DNA from: an uncultured Bacteroidales bacterium
GTDB lineage: Bacteria > Bacteroidota > Bacteroidia > Bacteroidales > VadinHA17
Direction: 5' to 3'
Assembly: GCA_963765005.1 (NCBI GenBank)
Contig: CAVXUP010000002.1
Coordinates: 279,607 to 343,606, forward strand
Length of the DNA: 64,000 nucleotides
Position numbers and translations under genes: made by a program
Part shown: piece after piece, positions 5,194 through 57,304 of the stretch
Numbering within the stretch: the first letter of the stretch is position 1
How the letters are laid out: each line of letters starts with the position of its first letter
The notes under the pieces: generated by a model
What the model was told of the DNA's origin: nothing
What the model saw: the letters and a program-made list of their open reading frames with translations, nothing else
Database searches by the model: none

Positions 5194-5231
5194 GCCATGA
5201 GCCATGAGCCATGAGCCATGAGCCCTGAGCC
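5194..5231. repeat. Tandem 7-mer array (gccatga) x5
   Basis: Read directly: gccatga gccatga gccatga gccatga gccctga gcc. Lies in the spacer after the DUF1080 stop. Confidence 0.9.
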
Positions 5232-5977
5232 TATTTTATCTCCCTGATCTTAATGTTCTTATAGGATACTATATTCCCATGGTCCTGAAGAAGAATCCGT
5301 CCCTCCTCCACCTCACCGAAACCGGGAGATGTTTTGAATTTACTTGTAGCAACAAGATCTTTCCATGCCTGATTTCCTCTTTCGTATTCGACTGTCATCT
5401 GCCCGTTCAGCCAGTGCTGAACTTTGTTGCCTTTCACTACTATCGCTGCCCTGTTCCAGTTGTCTGTTCCGTTGTCCTTTACATTCTTCGGAGGAATCAG
5501 GTCATATAATCCGGCAAGAGTACGGTTGCCTGCAATACCGGCTTTGGCATCGGGATGATTTTTGTCGTCGAGCACCTGGTATTCACATCCTATACCTGAC
5601 AGCGATCCGTTATTTTTTTCAGTATCAACAAAATATTTAATTCCGCTGTTTGCTCCCTTAGTATATTTAAAGTCGACGGTGAGCTCAAAGTTTTTATATT
5701 TTTCAGCAGTTACAATATCGCCGCCTCCTCCATCTTTTTTTGTTTCAGGACTTACTCTCAGTTCACCGTTGCTTATAACCCAGCCATTAACAGGAAAGAG
5801 CCTGGATTTTGCATTCATCCAGCCTGAAGATGTATTGCCATCGAAAAGGAGTTTCCAGCCCTCCTTTTTTTCTTTTTCACTTAGCTGATTATCCGGGTTG
5901 TTCGACTGTCCGCTTGCAGGGACAATCAGAATGGACAATAAAATCGCAATAACATAAGCCGACATACTTTTTTTCAT
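5231..5977 (-). CDS. DUF1080 (3-keto-disaccharide hydrolase-like, concanavalin-type) secreted protein
   Basis: Signal peptide; GWKLLFDGNT..GW, NFELTVDFKY..ANSGI, EYQVLDD, LQDHG pattern typical of DUF1080. Confidence 0.7.
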   Translation of the reverse strand: MKKSMSAYVIAILLSILIVPASGQSNNPDNQLSEKEKKEGWKLLFDGNTSSGWMNAKSRLFPVNGWVISNGELRVSPETKKDGGGGDIVTAEKYKNFELTVDFKYTKGANSGIKYFVDTEKNNGSLSGIGCEYQVLDDKNHPDAKAGIAGNRTLAGLYDLIPPKNVKDNGTDNWNRAAIVVKGNKVQHWLNGQMTVEYERGNQAWKDLVATSKFKTSPGFGEVEEGRILLQDHGNIVSYKNIKIREIK

Positions 5978-6050
5978 GATTCTTCTATTTGGTTATCAAT
6001 ATTTTTTTGCACCCGTACCTTTCAGCCTCCGTAGCCTTGGCGAAGGAGGC

Positions 6051-6133
6051 CCGCACCCCGCACCCTGCACCCCGCACCCCGCACCCTTCAACCTCTTCAA
6101 CCTCTTCAACTACTTCAACCTCTTCAACCCCTT
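6051..6133. repeat. Two abutting tandem arrays: (ccgcacc) x5 then (ttcaacctc) x5
   Basis: Read directly. The 9-mer array runs into the last codons of the GH43 ORF. It is preceded by a small hairpin gcctcc...ggaggc (6025-6050). Confidence 0.9.
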
Positions 6134-7249
6134 CATTTCCCACTCCTCCCGCCACCTTATAACCGGCATGTCTGCCTCCCATTCCAGAGGAAGCCATACA
6201 TGAGGACTGTCAGAAAGATTTTCAGGCGTCCATCTGTCGCCCATATAAACAAATAAATCCTTTTTTATGTTCAGGGCAAGTACGTTTGTACTCTGAGATC
6301 CGAAAGTGATTTTATTTTCCTCTTCTGTTCCCCTGCACGGATTTCCGGCTGCCTTCCACTCACCGGTCAGCTTATCAGCTACAGAGAGCCTGCCCGGATT
6401 GGGTTTCCATCCTGTAGTCCCTGATGTAAACATGAAGTACTTCCCTTTTGCATAGAAGATTGCAGGAGCTTCATTCGATTCACCTGGAAGAACACGGTAA
6501 TATCTGCCTGTAAAATCGAGGAAATCATCAGTAAGCTCAGAGAAGTGGAGAGTCATATTCTCCTCAGCGGAATGAATATGATAAGCTTTTCCATCCTTGT
6601 CGATATAAAGAGTCATATCGCGTGCCATCTGACCGCCGGCAAAATCTCTCCTCACAAACAATCCATCTCTTACTGCCTGTTTCCACTCCTCGCTCCAGCT
6701 CTTGAGATCTCCTTCCTTTACCTGAAGTTTTTTCTGTTCTTCTGTAAAATTCTGAGGCCAGGTGCCGGCATTCGGGCGGAGACTCCGGATATATTTATAA
6801 GGACCTGTTATTTTATCGCTTACTGCTACTCCGGTCATTGCTGCCTTGTAGCCCTGTCCCTTCAGTTCATGATGAAACCACATTACAAATTTGCCGGTCT
6901 TGCTGTTAAAGATCACCTTTGGCCGTTCAATTACGCAACCTGGCTGAAGGAGACTTGCGGTATCATTTATTACCCTTAGGGAAAGGCCTTCATTTTTCCA
7001 GTTTATAAGATCATTTGACGAATAGCAGCCCACACCGTATTTTGTTTTGTCCTGGACTCCCCTTGGAAGCCTGCTCTCTCCAAACCAGTAATAGATACCC
7101 TTATGCTCAATTATTGCTCCTCCGTGGGCATTGATATGATTGCCATCGGTATCAGGCCATACCTGACCAGGCTTTATCGTTTTGCTTTCCTGTGCCTTGA
7201 CTCCAAGCGACAGGATTATAAGCAGAATCAGGGATATCTTTTTCTTCAT
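6110..7249 (-). CDS. Glycoside hydrolase family 43 (GH43_24-like, exo-beta-1,3-galactanase-type)
   Basis: Start at the internal Met with signal peptide (MKKKISLILLIILSLGVKAQ). DGNHINAHGGAIIEHKGIYYWFGE motif resembles GH43_24. The last ~8 codons are read out of the 9-mer repeat array. Confidence 0.6.
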   Translation of the reverse strand: MKKKISLILLIILSLGVKAQESKTIKPGQVWPDTDGNHINAHGGAIIEHKGIYYWFGESRLPRGVQDKTKYGVGCYSSNDLINWKNEGLSLRVINDTASLLQPGCVIERPKVIFNSKTGKFVMWFHHELKGQGYKAAMTGVAVSDKITGPYKYIRSLRPNAGTWPQNFTEEQKKLQVKEGDLKSWSEEWKQAVRDGLFVRRDFAGGQMARDMTLYIDKDGKAYHIHSAEENMTLHFSELTDDFLDFTGRYYRVLPGESNEAPAIFYAKGKYFMFTSGTTGWKPNPGRLSVADKLTGEWKAAGNPCRGTEEENKITFGSQSTNVLALNIKKDLFVYMGDRWTPENLSDSPHVWLPLEWEADMPVIRWREEWEMKGLKRLK

Positions 7250-7351: not shown

Positions 7352-8128
7352 ATGAAAAATATTCTGGCAATTTCGCTTCTGTTTTCAGGGATGTTTATGC
7401 AAACATCATTTGGTCAGCCTGTTGTAGGGCTGGATAACTGGTTCAACCGCGAAACGAATGTAAAAACAGGAAATCCATATCATTATCTCTGGACTGATAC
7501 TGAGTGGAGCGGATATTCCCGCTGGGGTGAAATTTTCAAATCGAGAGGAGCTGTTATAACAACTATTGATAAACCACTTGCCTCTGCATTGAAAAAGATC
7601 AATGTTTATATAATTGTTGACCCTGATACCACAACTGAATCGAAAGCCCCAAACTATATTTTGCCCGACGATATAAAGGCAATAAAGAGCTGGGTGGAAA
7701 AAGGCGGTGTCCTTGCTGTGCTTGCCAACGATGCCCCGAATTGCGAGTTTACGCATCTGAACCAGCTGATGAGGGAATTCGGCATGACTTTCAATCATGT
7801 AACCCTCCACCCGGTTACCGGAACAAATTTTGAGATGGGCGCCAGCAAGGATTTTCCAGCCCATCCGTTATTCAAAGGAGTGTCAAAGATCTATATCAAG
7901 GAGGTATCAGATATAAATCTTTCAGGGTCGGCAAAATCTGTACTCTCTGAGAATGGAAAGGTTCTGATTGCTGAAAATAAATTCGGAAAGGGTTATGTTT
8001 TTGCTATTGGCGATCCATGGATATACAATGAATATATTGACCACGACAGGCTGCCGGAGAGCTTTGAGAACAGAAAGGCAGCTGAGAATCTGACGGATTT
8101 GCTTCTGGGATACACCAGGAAGAAGTGA
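7352..8128 (+). CDS. Secreted protein of unknown function (DUF4350-like, glutamine-amidotransferase-like fold suspected)
   Basis: Start at in-frame ATG 7352 giving a signal peptide (MKNILAISLLFSGMFMQTSFGQ). No catalytic motif recognised. Confidence 0.4.
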   Translation: MKNILAISLLFSGMFMQTSFGQPVVGLDNWFNRETNVKTGNPYHYLWTDTEWSGYSRWGEIFKSRGAVITTIDKPLASALKKINVYIIVDPDTTTESKAPNYILPDDIKAIKSWVEKGGVLAVLANDAPNCEFTHLNQLMREFGMTFNHVTLHPVTGTNFEMGASKDFPAHPLFKGVSKIYIKEVSDINLSGSAKSVLSENGKVLIAENKFGKGYVFAIGDPWIYNEYIDHDRLPESFENRKAAENLTDLLLGYTRKK

Positions 8129-8248
8129 GAGGGAGAGGGGGAGATTGGGAGAAAGGGAGAATGGGAGAGGGGGAGAATGGGAGAATGGGAGAATGGGAGA
8201 ATGGGAGAGGGGGAGACAAAAAGATAAAAGATAAAAGATAAAAGATAA
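8126..8248. repeat. Approximately 120-nt near-pure polypurine spacer: GGGAGA-type 8-mer array (gagaatgg etc.) then (gataaaa) x4
   Basis: Fills the whole spacer from the stop at 8126 to the ATG at 8250. Contains the 16-mer agggagagggggagat (8130-8145), which also occurs twice at 10920-10951 on the other strand. Confidence 0.9.
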
Positions 8249-8249: not shown

Positions 8250-9482
8250 ATGAAAATCAAGATCATATACTTAGTTGCTGTAAGCATCTTGGGCTTGTCA
8301 ATTACTTCATTGACAGAGAGCTCAGCTCAGCTGATACCATCGGATAAAACCATTGAGGCAATGGTTCTTGCCAATAAATACTTCATGGAAAAATGGCCTG
8401 ATGTCGGGAAGACTATTATCACCGAAAGGGAAAGGCCGAGTAATATCTGGACACGTGGTGTCTACTATGAAGGTCTTATGGCTCTGTACAAGATCAGTCC
8501 AAATCCGGCTTATCTCGACTATACGGTCAGCTGGGGGCAATTCCATAAATGGGGTCTGAGGGATGGCATTACAACCCGGAACGGAGACAATCAGTGTTGC
8601 GGACAGACCTATATAGATATTTATATGCTCGACAGGTACAAAGAGGAGAGGATAAAGGACATAAAGGCATGTATCGACAACATGCTGGCCACTGATAAGA
8701 TCGACGACTGGAACTGGATTGATGCCTTGCAGATGGCTATGCCTGTATATGCACGGCTTGGTACCATATACAGGGATAAAAGGTACTTCGACAGGATGAA
8801 TGAAATGTATATGTATACCAAACTCAGCCATGGCACTAATGGTTTATACAATCCTGAGGATCATCTCTGGTGGCGCGATAAGGATTTTGTGCCGCCATAT
8901 AAGGAGCCAAATGGTGAGAATTGTTACTGGTCGAGAGGCAATGGATGGGTTGTTGCAGCCCTGGTAAGGACTCTTGAGTTTCTTCCCGAAAAGAACAAGT
9001 ACCGTGATGAGTATGTAAAAACGCTGAAAGAGATGCTGGAGGCACTTGTTCCCCTGCAGAGGAGTGACGGTTACTGGAATGTAAGCCTTAAGGATCCTTC
9101 AAACTTCGGAGGGAAAGAGCTGACAGGCACAGCTCTGTTTGTTTATGGGATGGCATGGGGAATCAACCAGGGGATCATAAGCAAAAAAGATTATCTTCCG
9201 GTTGTCACCAAAGCCTGGAATGCCATGGTTGCAGAATCAGTTCATCCTAACGGCTTTCTGGGTTATGTGCAGGGCACAGGGAAGGAGCCAAAAGACAGCC
9301 AGCCTGTAGGTTATGATATTGTTCCGAATTTTGAAGATTTCGGTCTTGGTTGTTTTCTGCTTGCCGGCTCCGAAGTATATAAGCTGAGCAAGTCTCTTGA
9401 GCCAAAACCGGAAAAAGGCGGTAAAGGCAGTAAAGGCAGTAAAGGCGATAAAGGGGAGAAAGGCGATAAAGGCGATAAATAG
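8250..9482 (+). CDS. GH105 (GH88-related) unsaturated rhamnogalacturonyl hydrolase
   Basis: YWSRGNGWVVAALVRTLEFLP and WWRDKDF motifs typical of YteR/YesR-type GH105. The C-terminal KGGKGSKGSKGDKGEKGDKGDK tail is translated 9-mer repeat. Confidence 0.8.
   Translation: MKIKIIYLVAVSILGLSITSLTESSAQLIPSDKTIEAMVLANKYFMEKWPDVGKTIITERERPSNIWTRGVYYEGLMALYKISPNPAYLDYTVSWGQFHKWGLRDGITTRNGDNQCCGQTYIDIYMLDRYKEERIKDIKACIDNMLATDKIDDWNWIDALQMAMPVYARLGTIYRDKRYFDRMNEMYMYTKLSHGTNGLYNPEDHLWWRDKDFVPPYKEPNGENCYWSRGNGWVVAALVRTLEFLPEKNKYRDEYVKTLKEMLEALVPLQRSDGYWNVSLKDPSNFGGKELTGTALFVYGMAWGINQGIISKKDYLPVVTKAWNAMVAESVHPNGFLGYVQGTGKEPKDSQPVGYDIVPNFEDFGLGCFLLAGSEVYKLSKSLEPKPEKGGKGSKGSKGDKGEKGDKGDK
9414..9476. repeat. 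Tandem 9-mer array (aaaggcNNt) x7 forming the GH105 C-terminal tail
   Basis: aaaggcggt aaaggcagt aaaggcagt aaaggcgat aaaggggag aaaggcgat aaaggcgat. Confidence 0.9.
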
Positions 9483-10876: not shown

Positions 10877-10878
10877 TA

Positions 10879-10953
10879 GGCATCAGGCAGCAGGCAGCAG
10901 GCAGCAGGCAGTATGTTCTATCTCCCCCTCTCCCTATCTCCCCCTCTCCCTTT
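10879..10953. repeat. (ggcagca) x5 array followed by 2x 16-mer atctccccctctccct
   Basis: Read directly. Lies in the spacer between convergent genes. The 16-mer is the reverse complement of 8130-8145. Confidence 0.9.
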
Positions 10954-10971
10954 CTTGTTCAGTGCCCTATG

Positions 10972-13800
10972 CTATTTCATCTTCCTCACAGGTGTCAGCG
11001 TCACCGGCCCGATAAGTCCCGATTCAAGAGGAAGCCAGTGAGATGCATCAAATAAACCATTCTTGTTGTTTTCCTTCAGCCTGGCTGCCATGTTTACATT
11101 ATAGAACTTTTTCCACCCGATTTTATTCCGGTCAAGGTAAGCAATTCTGTTTGCCATAAGGTTTGAGACCTTTAACTCAAGTGTATTGTTTTCGAGAATT
11201 AAACTTTTATCTATTATAACACTATAATCAGGGCCGATCAATGTTGCCAGCTCTTTGCCGTTAAGTGTAACTCTTACACTATTAAAGACTTTCCCGAGTT
11301 GAAGCTGCCAGGCATCTGAATTAGTGGCAGGCCTCCTGAAATTAATCTTATAAGTGGCCGTTCCTGAAAAATCCTTCAGTTGCTCACCGCCAAATTCAGT
11401 CCAAGTTTTAAGTGTGCTTATCCTGACAGGAGGAGGAAGCACCGGCCCTCCTTCCACGAAATCAACACTCCATGTTCCGGCGATTTCTAAAGGAGCTGAA
11501 GCAGGATCATAGAAGGGAAAGGGCTCTCCTGCAATTTTTTTATCTGATATTTTAATAATCTGTGATTCCCCGGGTTTCAGCCGTGTAAAGATTTCGATTC
11601 TGCTATCGCCATTCTTCCTTAATTTTGCTGTACCGAAATCAGCACTGTAAGGATTGAATATTGCTGCTGATCCGGCTCTTATACTTAAGGGAAGCCATCC
11701 ATTGAAGATCTTGTCTGATTTATTCTTTATGAAATAGCATGCGCCTCCATTAATCAATCTTCTCGAGAATTGAATTCCATTGTCTGCCATCTGTTCCCGC
11801 CTGATTCCCGCAAAGTTTAAAAGAGAGGGAAGATCATTCCCGATGATTATGCTTCCTGAACCAAGATCAGCTTTCTTTATTCCTGTTTGTGATGTTGTCT
11901 TAAATGGAATGCTATTCTTTATTTCAATGAATAATTTTTCTTTTTCTGCCTGAAGATACCAGCCTGATGTTTTTTCCGGCATAGAGCCAAGAAAGATGAT
12001 ACTGGCACCATCGTTTGCCAGTTTAAGGATCTGAGTAAAAGTTGTTATCGGAATGTATTGGCAACCTGGTATGATAAGTGTTTTATAGCGGTTACCCTCG
12101 GTTTCCAGTAGTTCATTTGTAATCCCGGTGTTTTTTAGTTGAAGATCAGAGATGTAGTCGAATGCATATCCTTTTTCAATCATTATATCAACGCCGGATT
12201 TAAAGGGTGTTCCCTTAAATGCCGGGCTTATTGCATCGAAATGTTCGAGCATTCCTCTTCCATAATCTGCATAGCGGTCAAAAACAGGGAAGTAAAGAAG
12301 AATGTCATTGTCAGCTTTTCCCTGCTGAAGAAATGACTGGACATGTGAGATATAACTATTCAGAGCCGGAAAATCGTTCCAGAAGCTGTTGGCAGGTGTA
12401 AATTCGACTGCTGCATAGAAAAGGAATCCCGGCCATGGTTCATTTTGCGGCGAGAAGCAGGTGCCGTGATAAAAAACATGATTGATGCCACCGAGGAAAA
12501 ACTGATCGACGGCATTCTTTACATCTGAAAGCGATGAAAGAAAATGTTCATTGAGCCAGGTGGCAGCTTCGGCGGAAGCATACTTTTTGCCTGTTACATT
12601 TGCTGCTGATGAGGCAAACTTGAGCTTTGTTAGTTCTGATCCTTCTGTCTCGGGTATATCAGAAGCTGCATAAAGATCAAGGATATTACCAGGCGATCCG
12701 TGCGCCTGGTTCCTTGTAGTCTTGCCCTGCTTATGAGCCCATGCTGTCCACGACATTGTGAACTTCTCAAGTATCAGGTCCGAAATAGTCTGCCGGTAAT
12801 CTGATAATACACGCTCATTTTTCTCCGGATCATCCTTCTGAAACAGTGCAGGAAGATTCATGCCCAGATCATAGCCTCTCCTTATCCTGAATTCATTGAA
12901 CAGGTCATTTGTCCAGTCAGCCTGGCCCGATGCATCATCAACTTCGTAAGAATCGTTGAAATATCCCCGCAGACCGTTGACATCATAATCTTTAAATATA
13001 GCGTCAAAATGTTTCAGATAGTTGTTAATTGCTCTCCCTGAGAAGTGGTCAATTACATCACCTTCCCCTCCGGGACCGGCTCTTTCTGCCTGTTTTCCGT
13101 GCCATCCTTCAAAAAGTGCATACAGGGTCCAGCTCCCGGGGGGAGCTGTCCAATCAAGTTTTCCTGTCTTGTTAACAGAACGGGTAAGATTAATCACCTG
13201 CCCTGAATCGGAATATGCCATAAGTATAGTCAGAGGCAGGGCCTTTTCGAACCTTATCTGGTCGAGGGCATAAAGCTGCAGATCCTTATTACTGCCGATC
13301 GGTTCTGTGAGTTTCGTGATATCGGGCTTCTGGCCGACAGGACGAACCAGTGGCTTCTGGATAAACTCAATCTTTTCACTTACTGTTTCTCCTCCCTTTA
13401 TACTCCAGGTCTTATAATTGATATTTCTGGAGGCATCCTGCGGATCAACCCAGGGCCCGCCGAATGGCCATCCTGAGGCATTGGCAAGATCAATGCCCAT
13501 GCCAAGCCGCTTACTCTCTGCCAGCGTATAGGTGAACATTTCCATCCATCTGGGAGACAGGTAATTAATAAATTTGTCTTCCTGTCCTTTTACCCCGTAT
13601 ATCACAGCAATCTCCATTCCGCCAAGTCCGGCCTTGCTGTACTTTTCCATGGCGGCTGTCAGATCAGCCTTGTTAACGATGCTTCCCGGCCACCACCATC
13701 GTGTCCAGGGTTTATTCTCTTTGGTAATCTCAGGCCAGGTAAGTTGCTGTGCGGATAATGTCTGGGACAATAGGAATGCAAAGAGGAGTAATCTCTTCAT
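10972..13800 (-). CDS. Large glycoside hydrolase, GH106-like (alpha-L-rhamnosidase family) with C-terminal galactose-binding-like domain
   Basis: Signal peptide; N-terminal KPWTRWWWPGS motif. The 942-aa size and the pectin-gene context are as I recall for GH106. Family assignment is from memory only. Confidence 0.5.
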   Translation of the reverse strand: MKRLLLFAFLLSQTLSAQQLTWPEITKENKPWTRWWWPGSIVNKADLTAAMEKYSKAGLGGMEIAVIYGVKGQEDKFINYLSPRWMEMFTYTLAESKRLGMGIDLANASGWPFGGPWVDPQDASRNINYKTWSIKGGETVSEKIEFIQKPLVRPVGQKPDITKLTEPIGSNKDLQLYALDQIRFEKALPLTILMAYSDSGQVINLTRSVNKTGKLDWTAPPGSWTLYALFEGWHGKQAERAGPGGEGDVIDHFSGRAINNYLKHFDAIFKDYDVNGLRGYFNDSYEVDDASGQADWTNDLFNEFRIRRGYDLGMNLPALFQKDDPEKNERVLSDYRQTISDLILEKFTMSWTAWAHKQGKTTRNQAHGSPGNILDLYAASDIPETEGSELTKLKFASSAANVTGKKYASAEAATWLNEHFLSSLSDVKNAVDQFFLGGINHVFYHGTCFSPQNEPWPGFLFYAAVEFTPANSFWNDFPALNSYISHVQSFLQQGKADNDILLYFPVFDRYADYGRGMLEHFDAISPAFKGTPFKSGVDIMIEKGYAFDYISDLQLKNTGITNELLETEGNRYKTLIIPGCQYIPITTFTQILKLANDGASIIFLGSMPEKTSGWYLQAEKEKLFIEIKNSIPFKTTSQTGIKKADLGSGSIIIGNDLPSLLNFAGIRREQMADNGIQFSRRLINGGACYFIKNKSDKIFNGWLPLSIRAGSAAIFNPYSADFGTAKLRKNGDSRIEIFTRLKPGESQIIKISDKKIAGEPFPFYDPASAPLEIAGTWSVDFVEGGPVLPPPVRISTLKTWTEFGGEQLKDFSGTATYKINFRRPATNSDAWQLQLGKVFNSVRVTLNGKELATLIGPDYSVIIDKSLILENNTLELKVSNLMANRIAYLDRNKIGWKKFYNVNMAARLKENNKNGLFDASHWLPLESGLIGPVTLTPVRKMK

Positions 13801-18474: not shown

Positions 18475-18822
18475 TTATTCTTTCAGAAACGCTATAACTG
18501 CTTCCCTGATATCCAGTTTTATGGCCTTTTCAGCAGATTCACCAATAAAGTACATTCTTCCCATATTCTCTTCCTGATTATTTCCAAAATCGGTATAGCT
18601 GAAGTTTCTTTTGAGGAATGAATCAATTACTCTAAAGTTTATAGTGCCATATTCAGCATCTGTAAATAAATCAATATCAATAGATTGACGGTGTCTGAAC
18701 TGTAAGCTTAAGCAAGTGCCTCCAACTAACCTGAAAGCAGCTAGCTCCCGGGCATCCATTAGTATTTGCAGTGCATCAATAATTTCTTTTGAAACGGGTT
18801 TTGTTATTTCATTTTCAGACAT
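18475..18822 (-). CDS. AbiEii/AbiGii-like nucleotidyltransferase toxin, N-terminal core only (truncated)
   Basis: NTase motif LVGGTCLSLQFRHRQSIDIDLF (GG..x..DxD). Only 115 aa, whereas I recall this family at roughly 200-300 aa. It overlaps the upstream gene by 19 nt. Confidence 0.6.
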   Translation of the reverse strand: MSENEITKPVSKEIIDALQILMDARELAAFRLVGGTCLSLQFRHRQSIDIDLFTDAEYGTINFRVIDSFLKRNFSYTDFGNNQEENMGRMYFIGESAEKAIKLDIREAVIAFLKE

Positions 18823-39122: not shown

Positions 39123-39127
39123 GAGGG

Positions 39128-42744: not shown

Positions 42745-42811
42745 GACCGAAGACCGAAGACCGAAGTCCGAAGTTATTTTTACTTCGGTCTCCCGTCTTC
42801 CGTCTTCTGTC
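42745..42811. repeat. Word-array hairpin (gaccgaag) x4 / (cttcggtc-type) x4; right arm overlaps the aminotransferase 3-prime end
   Basis: gaccgaag accgaag accgaag tccgaag ttattttt acttcgg tctcccg tcttccg tcttctg tc. Confidence 0.85.
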
Positions 42812-47476: not shown

Positions 47477-47491
47477 CAAAAATCATTCTAT

Positions 47492-49720
47492 ATGTCTGTT
47501 ATAGTTTTTAAAGGTCTTTTCAGATTTGTTAAATGTAGTATTCTGATACTACTTTGTACTGTGATAAATGAAAGTGCCGGGGCACAGAAGTTAACTCAAT
47601 TTGTTGATCCGTTGATTGGCTCCGGAGGTCACGGCCATGTATTTGTAGGAGCAAGCGTGCCTTTTGGAGCGGTACAACTGGGTCCTAACAATATTTACAA
47701 AGGCTGGGACTGGTGTTCGGGTTACCATTATTCTGATAGTCTGATAATTGGTTTTTCTCATTTGCATCTAAGCGGTACCGGCATTGGTGATCTGGGAGAT
47801 GTATTAATCATGCCGGTAACCGGGGAAGTGAAACTGGATAAAGGCAGGCAGGAATTTCCACACAAAGGTTATTTAACAACTTTTAGCCATAAGAATGAAA
47901 TTGCCAGGCCGGGATATTATTCTGTGAAAATGGATAATGGGGTGGCAGTTGAACTTACAGCCTCCGAGCGTGTTGGTTTTCATCAGTACCGATTCCCTAA
48001 AGGTAAAGAGGCACATTTGATTATAGACCTTAAAGAAGGAATCAACGACAAAAGTACCGACACATATCTGGAACAGACCGATGAATTCACCCTGAAAGGA
48101 TACCGTTTTTCTTCAGGCTGGGCGAAAGGAGCAGCAGGTTTTCTTTGCTATCCGTTCGTCGAAACCCATAAAAAATCTGATTATTTTACAACGAGGATAA
48201 ACCACTTTCAGGCAAAAAAGGCCAGGGGATTTCAGTAAAAGGTGTAATTGGATTTAATGCAGGGGGATTTTGTGCAGTTGAAAGTGGGTATTTCACCTGT
48301 CAGTGCAGAAAATGCACTTGATAACATCAATGCTGAAATTCCGGATTGGAACTTCACTGGAATAGTGAAACAGGCTGATGCAAAATGGAACAAGGAACTT
48401 TCGCGAATTGAAATTGGAACGAAGAACGCAGTCCGATAAACGGATCTTCTACACGGCCCTTTTTCATTCCATGATTCATCCATCGCTGTTCAACGACCAT
48501 AATGGCGATTATCAGGGAGCCGACAATAAAATATACACCAAGACCGGCATTTAAAAACTATTCGGTATTTTCAACCTGGGACACTTACCGGGCAGCACAT
48601 TCGCTATTTACTATTGATTGCTCCTGATACGTGTTAATGATTTTGTCAATAGCATATTAGCAATTAACGACCAGCAAGGTTTTATGCCCATCTGGCATCT
48701 GAATGGATACGAGACCGAATGATGACAGGGATCAGCAGTTTGCAGATTGTTGCAGAAGCATATCTGAAAGGATTTCGGGGATTTGATGCAGAAAGAGCCT
48801 ATCAGGCAATTAAGAAAAACAGCCATGTCTGACTTACGTGGGCTTAACTTTCTGACGGGATTTGAAACCCATTCCCGGTCGGATAAAAACAGTGTGGGCA
48901 GGTCAGTAGCTCCAGACAATGGAATTATCAATTTCTGATGGCAGCATTGCTTTAATGGCAAAGGCTCTAGGGAAAAATGAAGATTCTGCTACTTTAGCAA
49001 ACGGGCAAAAAATTACCAGCTCTTATTACGACCAGTCAGTTGGTTTTTTCAGAGGGATTAAGAGTGACGGAACCCGTAATCCGGAATTTGATGCATTCAA
49101 ATCTACAAAACCCTGGGCTGAGGATTATGCCGAAGGTAATGCCTGGCAGTACTTATGGCTGGCTCCACAGGATGTTTCAGGATTAATAGATTTTTTGGGT
49201 GGGAAAGATATCTTCAATGCAAGATTAGACAGCTTTTTTACACTCACGTCCCAAAGACAATTCAGAAGCATTGGTCGATCTTACAGGTCTTATCGGTCAG
49301 TATGCACATGGCAACGAACCCAGCCACCACATTGCTTATTTGTATGCTTATTCTGGGCAGCAATGGAAAACAGCAGAGAAAGTTCGCTACATCATGAAGG
49401 AGTTTTACCACGATGACCCGGATGGAGTAATTGGAAACGAGGATTGCGGACAGATGTCGGCCTGGTATATTTTTTCATCGCTTGGTTTTTACCCGGTTTT
49501 TCCAGCCTCACAAGATTATGTTTTGGGAAGCCCCTTGTTTGATAAAGCAACAATCAATTTACCCGATGGAAAGAAATTTACAGTTGAGGCGGTAAATAAC
49601 AGCTCCGAAAACATCTATATCCAGCAAGTGGAATTGAATGGACAGAAACTCGCTAAATTCTCTGTCAGTCATAAGGATATTCTAAATGGCGGGGCTTCTG
49701 AAAATAATGATGTGGAATAA
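47492..49720 (+). pseudogene. GH92 alpha-mannosidase (second tandem copy), multiple frameshifts
   Basis: N-terminus FVDPLIGSGGHGHVFVGASVPFGAVQLGPNN and FSHLHLSGTG; C-terminus HGNEPSHHIAYLYAYSGQQWKT and GNEDCGQMSAWY. Breaks include extra Gs at 48128-48129 and at the G5 run 48262-48266. Confidence 0.8.
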
Positions 49721-49734
49721 ACCGAATAATAACT

Positions 49735-51252
49735 TTAGTGGGACATTAGAAGAGTAGCAATTGAGGAATTGATGACTTCCTGTTTGCCTGTATCAGGTAC
49801 CTTCGAGGCAAAATCATTATAAAAACCACGAAGTTTTTCAATTTCCCCTCTATATTTCTCGTTTTTGATCTGGTTACTGATCTCCTGCGGATCCGATGCC
49901 CGTATAAAAAACTGATCGCCGAATTCCCTGTAGTCCGCTTTCTTCTGATAGTTGGTCGGATCGAGCATAATCCCGAGCTTATAGTTTTTAGTTATTACAG
50001 CAGCCTGCGACCAGCTCTCTGATATAAAATACTCCCTGTTTATTGGTTTTCCTTTAAGAAGATTTCCGGCAATAGATTGCCCCTGAACAGGATGCTTCAA
50101 CTCAGGCATCTTCAGCCCGAGCAATTCAACAAGTGTGGGATAGATATCAACCAGGCTCACTAATTCTGCCGACCGTTTTCCTCTTTGCTTATTGCCAGGG
50201 TACCTGATGATCAATGGGATATTCAGAATATCCTCATAAATATTTTGCCCTGCAGCAGCCTTTTCAACCATTCCGTGATTCCCAACAAAATCACCATGAT
50301 CGGAGGTATAGATAACGATAGTCTCTTCAGAAATTCCGGCTTCATCCAGCGCGCTCAGGATCTGACCTATACAATTGTCAATTTCAGTTACAAGTGCATA
50401 ATAGGCACCTATATAGTTTCGCCAGATCTGTTCGTCTGCATATGCTTTGTCGACATTCCATACTTTATTGTTCCCCTCACGTATCGACTGCATCAGAGGC
50501 GGAATATTCACTTTTGGTTCATAGAGGCTTGCCGGTTTTTTTATTGAACTTCCATTATTTCGCCCCTCGCCCCATGATGTCACATCGTACATATCCATAT
50601 ATTTTTTGAGAGGGGTATAGGGTTGGTGAGGTCTGTAGAATGTAGCCCAGCAGAAGAATGGTTTATCGTTTTTTGTTTGTTTTTTGATCATCTCGACAGT
50701 AAGCATAGTAGTAAATGCCTCCATTGTCATGTTCTCAGGCAATGATGAAATGCGGGTTCCCAGATCAGCAGTCGGAATAGCTGCTCCTGACTGTGAAGAA
50801 CAAGGAGATCCTTTGCCAAACTCTGCAGCCCAATCCATCGCAAATTCCTTTGCGTAACCATTCTTTTCTACCCACTCAACATAACCGTTACCCCTGGTTT
50901 CATTGCACAAATGACTTTGTTCAACATCCCAGCCAGCGTCAACAGCTGCCGATGTGTGACGTTTACCGAAAGCGTAGGTTCTGTAGTTATTTTGCTGAAA
51001 CAGTGATGCAAGGGAAACAACCTCATTCATTACCGATGTCCTCTCGCTGTTTGAAAGCAGACCAAGGGTACGAGGATAAAGTCCTGTCATCATTGATGAT
51101 CTTGAAGGAGCTGATATTCCTACAGAACAATAAGCACGATCAAAAACCACAGACTGCTTTGCCAGGTTATCGAGGTTTGGTGTCAGGACATCAGGATGTC
51201 CTTCGAAACCCATAACATTTTTACTGTGCTGATCTGAAAAAAGAATGAGCAC
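49735..51252 (-). CDS. Sulfatase (S1, Ser-type); interior intact, N-terminal signal region apparently disrupted
   Basis: LILFSDQHS, signature SAPSRSSMMTGLYP, YTSDHGDF. The track start is GTG. An ATG at 51372 is in the same frame but is separated by in-frame stops, with a signal-like stretch (IITQGVLLFLRTLLA). This suggests a compensated frameshift pair. Confidence 0.75.
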   Translation of the reverse strand: MLILFSDQHSKNVMGFEGHPDVLTPNLDNLAKQSVVFDRAYCSVGISAPSRSSMMTGLYPRTLGLLSNSERTSVMNEVVSLASLFQQNNYRTYAFGKRHTSAAVDAGWDVEQSHLCNETRGNGYVEWVEKNGYAKEFAMDWAAEFGKGSPCSSQSGAAIPTADLGTRISSLPENMTMEAFTTMLTVEMIKKQTKNDKPFFCWATFYRPHQPYTPLKKYMDMYDVTSWGEGRNNGSSIKKPASLYEPKVNIPPLMQSIREGNNKVWNVDKAYADEQIWRNYIGAYYALVTEIDNCIGQILSALDEAGISEETIVIYTSDHGDFVGNHGMVEKAAAGQNIYEDILNIPLIIRYPGNKQRGKRSAELVSLVDIYPTLVELLGLKMPELKHPVQGQSIAGNLLKGKPINREYFISESWSQAAVITKNYKLGIMLDPTNYQKKADYREFGDQFFIRASDPQEISNQIKNEKYRGEIEKLRGFYNDFASKVPDTGKQEVINSSIATLLMSH

Positions 51253-51461
51253 ATTAGGTTTTTTATCTGGTGTTTTTGCAAGCAGGGTTCTGAGAAATAA
51301 TAAGACTCCCTGTGTGATAATTCCTGAGTTTAGTTATTAATTCGAAAGTCAGGGCCAATTTTTAGTTCTCATGTTCTTGTAAGACTATACGGATTAGTTG
51401 ATGTATTTCGATCAGGCTAACGATCGAGTTTATTAGATGAGGTTTGCTATATTTAATCTTC

Positions 51462-52849
51462 TTATTTAAGAGACTCGAGAAAGCTTTCATATTTTCTGAT
51501 CATCTCTCTCTTAATTTCAGGGTACTTTACCAGACAGATCAGTGCTTTCAGTACGATCATTTTCGAGGTCGAACAACAGCATCTCACCTTCCATTTTTTC
51601 TGGTTTTATTCCGGGATAGGCAGCCGGAGTGAATTGTTCAAAAGGAGCTATAATTGTTGTCCCGTCAGGTCCTCTCGGCGTCCTTCCAGTTATCAAGATT
51701 GGGACTTTTGTAATAGTCGGGAGTTACAACGAACAATTTCCATTTGCCATCGCGAATGGTCTTTATCTGCTTTTCTCTCATGGTAAAAATCGGATTATGA
51801 GCCATCTGTTTCCCTGTTAGAATGGGCATAATGTTCTGTCCGTCAAGGATTATTGCGGGATCTGTCTTAATTCCTGCAAGGTTCATTATTGTAGGAAGAA
51901 TATCCGGTGACCAGCAGGGAGTTGAGATTGTTTTATTCTGAGGTAATTTCTGCGGATACCTTATTATGAACGGAACACGGGTTCCTCCTTCCCAGTTTGT
52001 TGCTTTCATTCCTTTCAGTCCACCGGTATCTCCTCCATACCATGGCCCGTTGTCTGACATAAAGATTACAATTGTGTTCTCAAGAATTCCCAGATCTTTC
52101 AATTGTTTGATAATCACACCGGTCGACCAGTCCAGTTCCTTTATTGCAGCAGCATACAGATCTTTGGCTGTTCCGGAGGTATAAAAGGCTTCTGAAGCAC
52201 CCAGCGGTTTATGTGGCATTGCATGGGCCAGATAAAGAAAGAACGGGGTATCCTTGTTTCTCTCAATAAAATCAAGAGCTTTCCTGGTATATTTTTGTGT
52301 CAGAAGATTCTGGTTAACAGGATATTCAACTGTATCCATATTTTCGATGATCTGTACCGGCCTCATGTCATTAGAATAAAGTATGCCGTAGTATTCATCA
52401 AAACCATGTTTTACGGGGAAGAACTCTGGTTTATGACCCAGGTGCCATTTCCCGATGCATTTGGTATGATAACCTGCACCCTGAAAAAGTTCACCCATTG
52501 TTACCTCACTTGCATTAATGCCAGGATCATTTATCCCTGCGTCAGGCGCCGGATTCTGAACTACTCCATGCCGCAGCGGAAACCTTCCGGTCAGTAGAGT
52601 TGCCCTTGAGGGTGCACTATAAGGTGTCGGGACATAAAAATCAGTCAGTCTTACTCCTTCTGAAGCCAGCCGATCGATATTGGTTGTTTTTATCTGGTTC
52701 TTATTGTAACATGAAATATCTCCATATCCCATATCGTCGGTCAGAATGATAACAACATTCGGTTTTGTATCTTCGGGAAAGGCATAAATGCCTGCTAAAG
52801 GAAGAGCAGCTCCTGCAAATATTGATGTAATCGCAATTTTGCTTTTCAT
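51462..52849 (-). pseudogene. Sulfatase (S1, Ser-type) with two frameshifts in the C-terminal ~65 codons
   Basis: ORF 51665-52849 (VVIILTDDMGYGD, signature YSAPSRATLLTGR). The tail ...LFDLENDRTESTDLSGK / YPEIKREMIRKYESFLESLK is recovered by hand in two other frames down to the stop at 51462. Confidence 0.75.
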
Positions 52850-53107
52850 TTATATATTGTTTCTATTCCGAGAAGCTTCTCGTAAAAATTTATAGTAAAA
52901 ATAAGCCTATTAACTTCAACGGCTTAACTATTTATACCTTTATTATTAAGAAAAGATTAATAATTCATTAATCTGTTAAATAATAGTATTTGCTTAATTA
53001 AGAGCTATTAATAATTATTTAAATCTCTTATATTCGTATGATTCATCTGTTGCTGAATTATTATCAGAAGCAGGAATAATATAAAAATATGATAACGCAA
53101 TCTGTAT

Positions 53108-54483
53108 ATGAAAAAGTATTTTTCATTAAGCTCCATAGTGGTCAGTGCCTGCACTTCCCAGATCCTATTCCGGTTGATGAAGACAGGGATAAGAATGTTC
53201 TGTTTATTAGTTGTCGACGATCTGACAACTACATTAGGATGCTATGGTCATCCTGTAGTAAAGACTCCAAATATTGACAGGTTGGCCAGGAATTGGGGTA
53301 AAGTTCAATCATGCTTATTGCAATTATGCAGTAAGTAATCCCAGCCGATCATCTTTCCTCACCGGATTGAAACCGGAGACAACAACAATACTTGATAATG
53401 TTAAGACTTTGCAGTCAATACTTGGCGACAGGATCACATTACCTTACCTGTTCAGGCAAAACGGTTATTATACTATGAGCCTGGGGAAAATATTTCACGG
53501 AGGCAAGGAACATAATGATCTTAAGGCCTGGGATGAGATTTATTCATTTCGGAGCCAACAGAGACTGGGAAAGACAGGTGAAAAACGCAATATGACCGGA
53601 GGAGTATTGAAATGGTGCGAGTGGATGGCTGCTGAGGGAGATGATGAAGATCAGGCAGACGGACAGATCGCACGGAAAGCAGTTGAATTTATTTCAGCTA
53701 AAAGAGAACAGCCTTTCTTCCTTGCTGTTGGATTTCACAAACCCCATGATCCTTTTTATGCCCCCAAAAAGTATTTTGACATGTATCCGCTTGAGATATG
53801 CAACCCTCCTGTTCTTCCGCAGGGATGGGTCGCTCCGTATAAACATACCCTGCCAACGGAAACTGCAGTTTTTGATAAGTTTACTGACCAGGACAAACGG
53901 GAATTTCTCAGATCGTACTATGCCTGCACCAGTTTTCATGGATGCACAGGTCGGAAAGCTGCTGAAAGCACTTGAGGAGTCGGGACAAATGGATAATACA
54001 CTTATTGTATTCATGGGTGACCACGGATATCATTTAGGCGAGCATAACTGGTGGAATAAGGTGACCATTTTCGAAAAAGGGACTAATGCTCCGTTCATAA
54101 TTGCCGGCAATGCAGCAGGCCAAAAAGGAGTTGAAACCGATGCAATGTTTGAATTCATTGATATCTATCCTACGCTTGCCGAACTGATGGGATTGAAAAA
54201 TGTACCTGACTATCTTGAAGGAAGAAGTTTTTCAGAAGTATTAAAAAATCCATCTCTTCCCTTCAGAAGTTCGGTACGTGCAGATAGTAAACAGGGGTGC
54301 GATGCTGGGCAGAACTGTAAAAACCGAATAAATGGAGATATACGGAATGGGATAACGGGAATAAGGGAAATGAACTCTATGATCAGGGAAAGGATCCGGT
54401 CGAGTATAATAATCTTGCTACTGATCCAGTCTTATTCTGCGGTTGTTGCAGAGATGAAAAAACTGCTTTATCAGAAGAATTGA
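53108..54483 (+). pseudogene. Sulfatase (S1, iduronate-2-sulfatase-like, Ser-type), many frameshifts
   Basis: Fragments 53108-53338, 53274-53975, 53641-54483 plus hand-recovered pieces ([16 protein letters not shown]; [33 protein letters not shown]). Signature [15 protein letters not shown]; GDHGYHLGEH. Confidence 0.75.
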
Positions 54484-54614
54484 TCTTTATTGAAAGATTT
54501 ATTTCAATTATAAGTTTTAGAAAAGGAATTCAGAGTCCGGAAATCATTTTTAAAAGCAATCATCTATATAAATGAATCAATCATACGATACCGACATTAT
54601 TAACCCCAGGAACT

Positions 54615-55858
54615 ATGAAAAGGAGATTTGTTTTTTCCATACTCTGTCTGCTGGCTTTGACATTTGTTGTTTCAGCCCAGAACAAACATTCAAAAACTAC
54701 AGCTTATCCTACCTATAAAGGACTGGTAATGGCAGGATACCAGGGATGGTTCATCCAGAAAGATGGGAAAATGTATACTGATCCCACTAAAATAAGCATA
54801 GATATGTGGCCCGATATGAAAGAGTATAAACAGTCATACCCGACAGGTGTCAAATATGCTGATGGTACTACTGCCACCTTTTTCAGTGCCACTGATAAAT
54901 CGACTATTGATCTTCATTTTAAATGGATGAAGGAATATGGTATCGACGGTGTATTCATGCAGCGGTTTTTCAATCGTGCACGTAAAGGAACCGAGCAGAG
55001 GAAGATCTATGCCAAAATGCTGGCTGATGCTCTCGATGCAGCATCAAAATACAACAGGGCAATTGCAGTGGAATACGATCTCTCAGGTCTTAAGGCAACA
55101 GGAGAGGATTGCTCAATGCTTATTGAAGACTGGAAGTTTCTTGTCGATTCACTTAAAGTGACAAACCAGAAGGGTAAAAAGACTTATCTGTATCACAACG
55201 GGAAACCACTGGTTGCAATCTGGGGTCTCGGATTTCCTGACCGTCCATATGATATCAGGAACATCGGATTTGATAAGCTTCTTGATTTCCTTAAAAACGA
55301 TCCTGTTTACGGCGGATGTTCAATTCTGATCGGAGTTCCTACTTACTGGCGTGAATTAGGCAGCGACTGTATAAAGGATACCTATTTGCATGACCTGATT
55401 AAAATGTCGGATATAGTACTTCCGTGGATGGTCGGACAGGACAAAGACTTGAAACTTATGATGCGTACAGGGATAATATCGCGAAAGATCTGGCATGGTG
55501 TAAAGAGAATAAAGTCGACTACTGCCCGGTAATATGGCCCGGATTCAGCTGGCATAATCTCAAGAAAACTGCTGAATCAAATGCTACACCAAGGCATGGG
55601 GGAACATTTTTCTGGAACCAGATCTACCATTCGATCAACTATGGATGTGAAATGCTTTTTATTGCAATGTTTGATGAGGTCAACGAAGGGACAGCAATAT
55701 TTAAGATTACAGATAATCCGCCAGTAGACGATGTCGCAAAATTTGTAGGACTGGAAGGAAAACCTTCTGATCACTACCTCTGGCTGACAGGCGAGGCAGG
55801 CAAAATGTTGAGAAAGGAGATCCCACTTACACCAACAATACCTGAAAGGAAAAAGTAG
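54615..55858 (+). pseudogene. Secreted putative glycoside hydrolase of unassigned family (TIM-barrel suspected), one frameshift
   Basis: ORFs 54615-55532 and 55424-55858 join at PWMVG|TGQRLETYD if 1 nt is missing after gg at 55434-55435. Motifs MAGYQGWF, GIDGVFMQRFF, AMFDEVNEGTAIFK. Family not identified by eye. Confidence 0.55.
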
Positions 55859-55903
55859 AGATCTGATTTAACAGTTTAATTAATATTTAAATATTAATCA
55901 TTT

Positions 55904-57176
55904 ATGAAAAAAATCTGTATTGTATTGTGGGCTGTCTTATTTGCAGTTAGTCTTATTGCACAACCGCCGTCAAAGCATTCTGCCACAACAATGTATCCAT
56001 CATATAAGAGCCTTATTATGGCAGGGTACCAGGGATGGTTCCACTCACCTAAGGAAGGGCAGCTGCTGTATCCCGATCCCACAAAATTAAGTATCGACAT
56101 GTGGCCCGACGTTTCGGAATATGAAAAGACATACGAAACAGGGTTGATGCATGCCGACGGCATCCAGGGCCCGCTTTTTCAGCGCTGATGATAAAAGCAC
56201 TGTCGATCTCCATTTCAAATGGATGAAGGACTATGGACTGGATGGAGTGTTCATGCAACGGTTCTTTAATTCAGCCCGGCCAGGAAACTCAAGTAAAAGT
56301 ACAGACGGCTATCTTGGCAAATGCCCTGGAAGCTGCATCGAAATATCAGAGAGCAATCGCGTTAATGTACGATCTCTCGGGTATTGAAACGGGCAGGCGA
56401 GGATTGTTCTCAATTAATTGCAGACTGGAAATATCTCGTTGACTACTGTAAAGGTAACTAACCAGAAAGGAGCACAAGACATATCTTTTCCACAGGGGAA
56501 AGCCACTTGGTAGTAATATGGGGAGTTGGATTTCCCGACCGCCCTTATGATATCAGGAATATAGGTCTTGAAAGATTCATGGATTTCCTGAAAAATGATC
56601 CTGTATATGGCGGCTGTTCTGTTATGCTTGGAGTTCCGACTTTCTGGCGCGATCTCAATGCCGATTGCATACATGATCCATATCTTCATGAACTTATCAG
56701 GTCAGCTGATCTGATCATGCCCTGGATGGTCCAGCGATTCACCCCGTTGATACATAACGATATGGACCGTTACAGGGATGTGATACTTGAGGATATGAAA
56801 TGGTGCAAGGAAAATAATGTTGATTATGTACCGTGTGTATGTCCCGGGATTCAGCTGGCATAACCTGAGTGTAAGGCAGTTCCCTGACGATATAAAGCCT
56901 GTTGGATCAATACCCAGACAGGGAGGAAGATTCTACTGGCAACAACTGTCGACTGCAATTCTTGCAGGAGCTGAAATGATTTATGTAGCTATGTTCGATG
57001 AAGTAAATGAGGGTACTGCGATTTTCAAGATAAGCGACAATCCTCCGGTACACGATACCGCACTGTTTGTAAAGAATGACGGTAAACCATCGGATCACTA
57101 TCTGTGGCTGACAGGAGAAGCATCAAAGATGCTGAAAAGACAGAAACCACTTAGTCTGCAAATGCCGCAGAGATAA
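55904..57176 (+). pseudogene. Tandem paralog of the 54615-55858 putative glycoside hydrolase, at least 4 frameshifts
   Basis: Fragments 55904-56188, 56151-56387, 56233-56442, 56507-56863 and 56817-57176 align colinearly with the upstream gene (MAGYQGWF, DLHFKWMKDYGLDGVFMQRFF, AMFDEVNEGTAIFK). Confidence 0.6.
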
Positions 57177-57267
57177 CACAATGATTCACAGTAACTATAT
57201 TTTAGAGAAGAAAATATAATAAAATGTGAGATTTTAAACTGAGATGAATGCTGATGTACTGTATTCC

Positions 57268-57304
57268 GGGTTAGGTTAGGCCAGGTTAGGTTAGGTAGGG
57301 TTGG
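57268..57304. repeat. Tandem 6-mer array (ggttag)-type
   Basis: gggttaggttaggccaggttaggttaggtagggttgg. Confidence 0.8.

Follow-up and report, generated by a model that had tools for sequence, protein, structure and literature searches.

Why should so many gene ends in one stretch of a bacterial genome carry a short word repeated head to tail? The question is raised by 64,000 nucleotides (nt) of an uncultured freshwater or peat Bacteroidales bacterium of the VadinHA17 lineage (assembly GCA_963765005.1, contig CAVXUP010000002.1, positions 279,607 to 343,606), here called the window. A sequence-only reading of it had noticed tandem arrays of 6-9-nt units, often facing their own inverted complement, in most of the spacers that follow genes, and had not recognized in them any described element family. 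We find that the arrays are a dense, many-unit case of a class already known, the heptamer-dominated long simple-sequence repeats, and not a new kind of element.

Arrays were detected with Tandem Repeats Finder (TRF) run on the whole window, and spacers were defined by a simple codon-usage gene caller, the key genes being verified with Pfam. Every array that had been listed was re-found by TRF at its place and with its unit, and the sequences are clean head-to-tail repeats. By our own gene calls, spacers of 60 nt or more number exactly 21 in the first 45 kb; 11 of them contain short-unit arrays (with periods of no more than 17), and a further three carry longer repeats, with periods of 22, 25/53 and 46 nt. 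The estimate of about 15 occupied spacers in 21 is therefore nearly reached (14) if the longer repeats are counted, but comes down to 11 for short units and to 9 under a strict rule (period 5-11, at least three copies, TRF score of at least 40). Among non-divergent spacers of the same 45 kb, 11 of 15 are occupied, whereas short-unit arrays occur in none of the six divergent ones, nor in any of the eight of the whole window, in agreement with the earlier impression that such spacers mostly lack them. Under the strict rule the whole window has 15-16 arrays, 11 of these in spacers, against some 0.5 per replicate when the window spacers are shuffled with their dinucleotides preserved. The control that the sequence-only reading had proposed thus leaves the observed arrays far above the shuffles, and the iteration of 5-11-nt units beyond chance that marks long simple-sequence repeats of that unit size (LSSR5-11) is present in the window.

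Some of these arrays are not spacer DNA in the full sense. Those at 9414-9479 and, for its 9-mer part, at 6110-6135 are translated as C-terminal tails, and 42783-42813 falls within the 3' end of an aminotransferase open reading frame (ORF), of which it is read as the final ~11 codons. Beyond 45 kb, the long "spacers" free of arrays cannot be counted as empty, because GH92, sulfatase and GH99 genes, broken into fragments, make up most of them.

The placement of the arrays with respect to genes was followed in a larger set. The window's aroA (EPSP synthase gene) served to find 80 related loci, with 64-73% identity, in metagenome-assembled genomes (MAGs) of uncultured Bacteroidales from fens, peat, lake sediment and similar habitats, the window's own genome not being among them; pooled with the window they amount to 1.38 Mb and 614 spacers of at least 40 nt. 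Arrays are present in 27 of 95 convergent spacers (2.34 arrays per kb; shuffled mean of 0.05 spacers per replicate), in 82 of 444 tandem spacers (1.11 per kb; shuffled mean of 2.6) and in only 6 of 75 divergent spacers (0.24 per kb; shuffled mean of 0.65), while coding DNA has 0.007-0.056 arrays per kb. The proposed bias towards gene 3' ends and away from divergent spacers is borne out by these densities (3'-type versus divergent spacers, Fisher p=0.011). Within tandem spacers, the arrays are not significantly closer to the stop codon than to the next start (68 versus 52, p=0.17), so that the 3' bias is mainly the contrast of convergent and tandem with divergent spacers, to which a stop-abutting subclass is added: 34 of 121 tandem-spacer arrays start within 10 nt of the stop. 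An apparent enrichment of stop triplets on the sense strand of stop-proximal units (31 versus 15) was rejected as circular, since by definition an ORF ends wherever an array supplies a stop.

The density itself is real, and its enrichment in this lineage is supported. With one rule for all sets (period 5-20, at least 2.5 copies, TRF score of at least 40), the window has 0.25 arrays per kb, and 0.33 in its first 45 kb; the 80 related loci have 0.07-0.15, and unrelated Bacteroidota 0.019. The last figure comes from 266 kb in six stretches (Bacteroides fragilis, Parabacteroides, two Phocaeicola pieces, Hymenobacter and Persicobacter), four of them with a G+C of 0.42-0.44, and on this sample the window stands about 13-fold above unrelated Bacteroidota of similar G+C, contrary to the equal density by which the sequence-only reading would have been refuted.

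As regards the units, period 7 accounts for 8 of the 16 strict window arrays, and it also leads among the non-coding arrays of the pooled set, with 45 arrays, followed by periods 10 (43), 9 (26), 12 (13), 8 (11) and 14 (10); shuffled sequences give a flat distribution. The bias to 7-mers thus holds as a preference but not as a rule, 9-10-nt periods being nearly as common in the relatives. Most units are unique to one locus (the 45 heptamer arrays comprise 37 distinct canonical heptamers), and at least 13 unit types occur in the 64 kb. They are not strictly locus-specific, as had been thought: the CCGAAGA family is found both at 39207-39330 and at 42745-42813, and a 9-mer element with the core GCAAAG and the ends TTAACCGCAAAG / CTTTGCGGTTAA occurs at 28922-28962 and 29867-29984, as well as in two relatives, L025 and L008. 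Exact (CCGAAGA)3 was found in at least 120 metagenome contigs with a G+C of 0.30-0.73, where about one match is expected by chance. In the contigs collected as L087-L166, (CCGAAGA)3 often lies beside arrays of other heptamers, and their G+C range indicates very different organisms; three of them (L108, L118 and L122) have a common conserved loop (…GCGGGCCTACGTTAGCGGG…) between inverted arms.

Inverted pairing is genuine, but only a minority of arrays (17% in a strict test) take part in it. A reverse-complement partner lies within 250 nt of 27 of 160 arrays, against 1-4 in reversed, complemented or direct controls, and adjacent arrays of the same period form 14 inverted pairs and a single direct one. 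The lengths of the two arms are correlated (Spearman 0.59, p=0.026, n=14), which lends a measure of support to the suggestion that both arms expand together; the suggestion is weakened by expansions of one arm only, the left one in L012 (more than 8 units) and the right one in L030 (more than 16 units). In the 9-10-nt families, only the 6-7-nt cores are complementary between arms, the 3-4-nt spacers being not. One element with this plan, (CTCTGTGnnn) x4 - GTAAGTTCTT loop - (nnnCACAGAG) x3-4, was seen among L002-L059, in more than 20 species and at the same two gene ends, namely at ~12,800-13,100 after a trpB2-like gene and at ~4,400-5,300 after a hisF-like gene; its complementarity is limited to the 7-nt cores and its period is 10 nt.

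Heptamer-rich repeats have drawn notice in bacteria since the short tandemly repeated repetitive (STRR) heptamers of heterocystous cyanobacteria and a survey of 2007, and the reason for seven bases, the agent that generates them and their possible function are long-standing questions. Long simple-sequence repeats with 5-11-nt units have been described from scattered free-living lineages, with heptamers as the most abundant; a polymerase footprint of ~7 nt was proposed to favor slippage, and units that are multiples of three are those found within genes (Mrazek, Guo and Shah, 2007, as summarized in PMC4679880). In Xanthomonas and Nostoc, the heptamers GGGAATC and GGGGA(C/T)T, respectively, occur more often than expected between aligned ORFs and less often in genes and between divergent ORFs, with their G-rich strand in sense within 50 bp of the stop and in antisense upstream of ORFs; they prefer four units and are not conserved at the same genes between related species, and each Xanthomonas genome has 70-75 inverted pairs of them (Rehm et al., 2015; PMC4692102). 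TAACTGA repeats, in turn, have been found in Beggiatoaceae, in some Cyanobacteria and in five Bacteroidetes; most of them lie 1-43 nt upstream of starts, and they hardly ever form inverted pairs (MacGregor, 2015; PMC4679880). The class, including its heptamer excess, its depletion in divergent spacers and its inverted pairs, was therefore already in print, and every rule that the sequence-only reading deemed undescribed had been published for other phyla (PMC4692102; PMC4679880).

The comparison with each of these systems also delimits what is particular here. Like the LSSR5-11, as far as the summary in PMC4679880 describes them, the window arrays are tandem iterations of 5-11-nt units beyond chance, have heptamers as their commonest period, are mostly intergenic and are tolerated in coding DNA when the unit is a multiple of three. 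Indeed, the clear protein-tail arrays (6110-6135 and 9414-9479) are both 9-mers; the exceptions are the heptamer arm at 42783-42813 and a 10-mer array at 28306-28334, scored inside a gene. Presence also varies between close relatives, three modules being absent in related strains. Unlike what that summary describes, the host is an uncultured Bacteroidales, the density reaches 0.25-0.33 arrays per kb, one genome has many units, 9-10-nt periods make a strong second class, and inverted pairs are frequent. With the Rehm heptamers the arrays share the excess between aligned ORFs, the scarcity in divergent spacers and coding DNA, the G-rich sense strand near stops, the size of about four units, the inverted pairs and the lack of conservation at given genes from one related species to another (PMC4692102). 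They are not heptamers of that type, which have essentially one G-quadruplex consensus unit per genome: the window has at least 13 unit types, and GGG tracts exist only in the GGGAGAAT array (8131-8216) and the GGAGAGGGGGAGATAG array (10918-10955). The TAACTGA and STRR repeats offer other parallels, that is, intergenic heptamers and a single unit patchily spread across phyla, comparable to (CCGAAGA)n in contigs of very different G+C; moreover, an (AAAAGAT)4 array that abuts a start codon recalls the upstream-of-start placement of TAACTGA, whereas most window arrays come after stop codons. The present case differs in its host lineage, its density and the number of units in one genome, in the 9-10-nt families built of core plus spacer, and in the evidence of turnover at junctions and between strains.

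This turnover is best seen in the operon around aroA. The order pheA, aminotransferase (AT), prephenate dehydrogenase (PDH), DAHP synthase/chorismate mutase (DAHPS), aroA, trpB2-like is kept in nearly all of the 80 loci, and its junctions differ widely in their arrays. There is none between pheA and AT (0 of 67 loci), where the genes overlap by 11 nt and are translationally coupled, and only one between DAHPS and aroA (1 of 79). The AT-to-PDH junction has arrays in 13 of 68 loci, with 11 distinct units, and the PDH-to-DAHPS junction in 20 of 71, with 22 distinct canonical units. At the latter, about half of the loci have a compact spacer of 14-18 nt, and the others reach up to 361 nt; the window module has homologous counterparts in at least 10 species (GTTTGGAGTGAGCTAAAG ... 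CACTYTAGG), and other species have unlike units at the same place, including GGAACCA, GGTGCAG, CACAAAG and AACCTGA. The largest expansion seen lies inside this conserved operon, at the AT-to-PDH junction of L003 (6390-8059), where a 499-nt spacer is nearly all (GAAGTCG)n followed by ~50 copies of GACTTCG, scored by TRF as a 54-copy heptamer.

Strains ~95% identical to the window, represented by Logan contigs of metagenome runs, differ by entire modules. Unrelated sequence stands in place of 6012-6094 (16 nt) and of 39165-39330 and 42719-42821 (18 nt each), and no target-site duplication was seen at these empty sites. At 42719-42821, the strains of runs X1 and X4 have an overlapping stop/start ATGA restored by the replacement; at 6012-6094, the 16 nt are TACTGCACCCCGCACC, in an X3 contig. 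Together with the junctions, these differences indicate that the turnover is fast and often by whole modules.

How, then, do the arrays arise and persist? Four readings were weighed, which are not mutually exclusive: slippage, a mobile cassette, transcript elements and protein-binding arrays. We lean, by a modest measure, towards the first, according to which these would be slippage-driven, fast-turning-over repeats of the known heptamer class that are tolerated past stop codons and shut out of spacers with promoters; templated copying or selection would keep their arms alike. Replication slippage or unequal exchange within an array would make it grow, shrink and become homogeneous; the turnover is what the strains and junctions record, and slippage or exchange its presumed enzymatic route. 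New arrays would be seeded by local duplication or by the copying of an existing module from elsewhere, unit families common to different loci and different genomes being observed and the copying presumed. Where an array comes to adjoin its own reverse complement, a long imperfect hairpin would be formed, and the similar length of its arms could result from hairpin-templated (template-switch) copying or from selection on the stem. Finally, arrays would persist only where they are harmless, i.e., past stops, in convergent spacers and between cistrons without translational coupling, and would be purged from promoter-bearing divergent spacers and from coding DNA, save for multiple-of-three units, as the densities show.

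Several observations weigh against this reading. The copy number of heptamers does not decay monotonically, but has a local mode at four (28 arrays, compared with 20 of three copies). Unit families such as (CCGAAGA)3 are shared by unrelated loci and unrelated organisms. Whole inverted modules differ between near-identical strains, which the gain or loss of ready-made modules explains more easily than stepwise slippage. Furthermore, of the window arrays that come first after a stop, 11 of 14 have more G than C on the mRNA strand, three are neutral and none is C-rich; that all 11 informative arrays are G-rich is not predicted by pure neutrality.

Among the alternatives, the one that best survives sees in the inverted modules the offshoots, devoid of a gene, of a dispersed hairpin cassette that in its complete form holds a PF05635 gene between inverted short-unit arrays; gain, loss and inversion would each affect an entire module, and the PF05635 protein might bind the arrays. 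We regard it as unlikely. PF05635 (S23p) genes are found inside the long stem of those 23S rRNA intervening sequences that contain an ORF, and the product is the 23S rRNA intervening-sequence protein, an Avd-like pentameric four-helix bundle. A search for inverted arrays 250-800 nt apart gave one match with a 104-residue ORF between the arms, at 17729-18210 of L044 (arms GAGATAT), which encodes PF05635 (E 3.6e-26). The cassette lies after a URO-D-like gene, and the orthologous site is filled in L039 (9230-9800, arms GAGGGGT; 72-75% identical to L044) by a cassette in the same orientation, is filled in L048 (17600-18300, arms GAGGAAT / CTCACGC) by one in the opposite orientation, and is empty, without arms, in L052; the PF05635 matches of the three filled sites have E values of 1e-26 to 1e-30. 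Two more genes came from the 80 metagenome loci chosen only for containing (CCGAAGA)3: that of L120 (G+C 0.62) has one internal stop and lies between arms of the CCGAAGA / TCTTCGG family, the same as in the window's two heptamer hairpins, and that of L150 (G+C 0.57) is intact, between arms of another unit and 11 kb away from the CCGAAGA array. In the DNA analyzed, every one of the five PF05635 genes met is therefore enclosed by inverted short-unit arrays, in the manner of the ORF-bearing intervening sequences, and the presence or absence of whole modules between ~95% identical strains fits mobility as well. Nevertheless, the window modules are gene-less, no PF05635 gene being found in the window by tblastn, and they lie between protein-coding genes and not in rRNA. 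Most units are confined to their own locus, an inverted partner accompanies only the minority of arrays already mentioned, the empty sites do not look like clean excisions, and no recombinase or transposase is known for such cassettes. Since few PF05635 genes were sampled, and some of them through a selection for arrays, we do not take the cassette as the main explanation. A narrower conjecture, which we consider doubtful, is that the CCGAAGA modules at 39207-39330 and 42745-42813 would be gene-less members of a cassette family that crosses phyla, and that a PF05635 protein would recognize ~4-5 units and drive their gain, loss and inversion, or their maintenance. If true, bacterial heptamer repeats would gain both a protein partner and a generating mechanism.

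A second alternative, to which we would give a rather low probability, holds that the arrays are functional parts of transcripts, either 3'-end or intercistronic elements; the candidates are G-rich or G-quadruplex tracts, hairpins that stabilize the upstream mRNA, RNA polymerase pause sites, shields against Rho, and setters of the ratio between cistrons. It would account for the stop-abutting subclass, for the mode at four units and for the strand bias, which in the window extends to the four long hairpins, all with a purine-rich 5' arm. In the pooled tandem spacers, moreover, near-stop arrays are more often G-rich (25:13) and those farther away, toward the next start, more often C-rich (51:26; Fisher p=0.0014), the same rule as in PMC4692102. 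On the other hand, the inverted pairs of the relatives have no arm polarity (G-rich arm first in 10 of 21, C-rich arm first in 11), unit sequences are not conserved, G-quadruplexes are impossible for most units, and half of the relatives, together with near-identical strains, do without a module at the same junction. Where a spacer contains inverted pairs, its sense RNA does not fold better than the antisense (5 versus 10), whereas a weak sense advantage exists in all spacers regardless of arrays, so that RNA-level selection on the hairpins finds no support. Likewise, the own arms of PDH-to-DAHPS modules pair no better than chimeras made between loci, in a test that is crude because its split points are uncertain. 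A search for RNA runs holding the window stretch found none.

Quite improbable, in our estimation, is the idea that the families of 9-10 nt (the window's GCAAAG, and CACAAAG and CTCTGTG / CACAGAG among the relatives) are primarily not hairpins, but arrays of sites, at intervals of roughly one helical turn, to which a DNA- or RNA-binding protein attaches. The conserved 6-7-nt core, the variable 3-4-nt spacers that are not complementary between arms, the usual four cores per arm with a period of 10 nt, the conserved ends or hairpin tips (TTAACCGCAAAG and GTGTAAGTTCTT) and the constant site of the CTCTGTG element after the trpB2-like gene in more than 20 species would all suit such a function. 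Yet the arms are still inverted copies, so that a hairpin interrupted by internal loops would do just as well; a candidate protein is not known, and only two window elements belong to this class.

That the arrays are a product of chance, composition or assembly has next to no credit left: the frame breaks of some window genes are compatible with an error-prone assembly, but shuffles yield 30- to 500-fold fewer arrays, and the same arrays recur in independent short-read contigs of other samples and the same features in the 80 independently assembled relatives, by which this explanation is refuted.

The arrays were also compared with known regulatory and mobile elements. They are neither canonical terminators nor needed by the neighboring genes. 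No match at Rfam gathering score exists in the 64 kb; a consensus scan for intrinsic terminators, which finds true ones at 44845-44820 and at 39028-38997 (an attenuator hairpin), misses the array modules, except for weak matches in the GCAAAG hairpin at 28937-28958, and a U-tract is absent from the modules. Besides, three of them lie between genes of an operon conserved in 80 genomes and must permit read-through. With repetitive extragenic palindromes and their mosaics (REP/BIME) and with miniature transposable elements bounded by inverted repeats (MITEs) they have in common that they are intergenic and hairpin-forming, lie between cistrons and in convergent spacers, and vary in presence between strains. 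Unlike these, they appear to share no genome-wide consensus palindrome, and their arms are tandem arrays; the MITE assignment was rejected because the empty sites hold 16-18 unrelated nt without target-site duplication.

The individual arrays illustrate this diversity. The first, (GCCATGA) x5.4 at 5194-5231 on the minus strand (TRF, sequence and Pfam), reads (GGCTCAT)n on the mRNA; it begins at the TAG stop of a 3-keto-disaccharide hydrolase gene (5231-5977, minus strand) and takes up the whole gap before the following gene, which is likely to start with the ATG at 5163. In its long form, the ORF 4756-5205 opens with an ATG that lies in the array, and the true start is probably elsewhere. A contig of a ~95% identical strain retains this array with small indels. 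Downstream of a GH43-like gene, (CCCGCAC) x5.3 occupies 6050-6086 on the minus strand, with (GTGCGGG)n on the mRNA (TRF), and is followed in coordinate order by the 9-mer array (CTTCAACCT) x5.6 at 6086-6135 (minus strand; TRF and ORF list), which spans the stop codon of the GH43-like ORF (6110-6112), its upstream part being the repetitive C-terminal tail mentioned above.

On the plus strand, (GGGAGAAT) x10.8 at 8131-8216 (TRF) starts 2 nt past the TGA stop of a DUF4350 gene (7352-8128). Its mRNA strand has no C and its GGG tracts are compatible with a G-quadruplex; the summed depth of metagenome contigs is about 40 times that of the flanks. Next to it, the A-rich and G-poor array (AAAAGAT) x4.3 at 8219-8248 (plus strand; TRF and Pfam) ends 1 nt before the ATG of a GH88 gene (8250), within whose 3' end lies (AAAGGCGAT) x7.3 at 9414-9479 (plus strand; TRF and ORF list), coding for a (K-G-x)n tail that reaches the stop codon. 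A convergent spacer contains (AGGCAGC) x4.9 at 10878-10911 (plus strand; TRF), which begins 1 nt past the stop of a beta-lactamase-family gene, and, on the minus strand, (CTATCTCCCCCTCTCC) x2.4 at 10918-10955 (TRF), a 16-mer made of 8-nt sub-units; the mRNA of the convergent GH106 gene (stop at 10972) has it in G-rich form (GGAGAGGGGGAGATAG).

After a SusD-like gene there is the short hairpin of the GCAAAG family, TTAACCGCAAAG...CTTTGCGGTTAA, at 28922-28962 on the plus strand (sequence; TRF at 28928-28949), the end sequences of which recur in L025 and L008. The long hairpin of the family, (nnnGCAAAG) x4 - loop - (CTTTGCnnn) x4, is at 29867-29984 on the plus strand (sequence; TRF at 29929-29957); its ends, TTAACCGCAAAG / CTTTGCGGTT, are as in the short one, and the 3-nt spacers between its cores are not complementary. 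In the convergent spacer between the NIPSNAP and trpB2-like genes, at 37509-37581 and assigned to neither strand, inverted 10-mer arrays, (ATAATCTGCG) x3 and (CGCAGAAAT) x2, surround a central hairpin (TRF at 37509-37537 and 37561-37581), with a minimum free energy of -0.44 kcal per nt.

The three modules of the aroA region are all on the minus strand. Downstream of aroA, the inverted heptamer module at 39207-39330 (CCGAAGA / CTTCGGT; TRF) has a purine-rich 5' mRNA arm of AAGACCG-like x5.6 (39292-39330), a 57-nt loop and a 3' arm of CTTCGGT-like x4 (39207-39234). At the PDH-to-DAHPS junction, the hairpin module at 41745-41869 (TRF at 41748-41841) is made of GTTTGGAGTGAGCTAGAG units, (GTTTGGA) x3 and the complement x2. 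The module at the AT-to-PDH junction, 42745-42813 (TRF at 42745-42773 and 42783-42813), again belongs to the CCGAAGA family, 42783-42813 being its 5' arm. A further array, (GGTTAG / GGTTA) x5-6 at 57268-57302 (plus strand; TRF), lies in a convergent spacer before a SARP-type sensor gene.

Such arrays have practical consequences. They lengthen or shorten the annotated ends of ORFs, provide false start codons, as in 5194-5231, and break short-read assemblies, so that annotators of MAGs of this kind should expect them. From a wider perspective, the dozens of units of this lineage, its filled and empty orthologous junctions and its strain-level variation make it good material to separate slippage, mobility and function.

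The region has other features of its own. At 38960-39130 (minus strand), after aroA and ahead of the stand-alone trpB2-like (PALP) gene, there is a leader kept in nearly all of the 80 relatives (L001-L080), with a mini-ORF (...Y-I-W-S-W-R-S..., two Trp codons) followed by a perfect hairpin and U-tract (39028-38997); it looks like a Trp attenuator. The pheA gene (region 44030-44800) is apparently broken or truncated relative to all relatives, and Pfam places GH92, sulfatase and GH99-like fragments at 45200-45574, 47492-48238, 49271-49720, 53641-54483 and 56817-57176. The fragmented genes at 45200-57200 and 44030-44800 are either pseudogenes or frameshift errors of the assembly, and they inflate the apparent count of long array-free spacers.

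Between the DUF6807 and NIPSNAP genes, a terminator-like palindrome (AAACGCCATGCATGGCGTTT) is present in two tandem copies with a period of ~46 nt (36596-36675). A divergent spacer at 31788-32050 holds ~5 REP/BIME-like units (CTACAAACAG plus a mini-palindrome of 13-15 nt) in both orientations, an element class distinct from the tandem arrays. Finally, at 18475-19349, a truncated AbiEii-like toxin fragment (PF08843) adjoins the gene of a DUF6922 protein, and the two may be the remnant of a type IV toxin-antitoxin pair.

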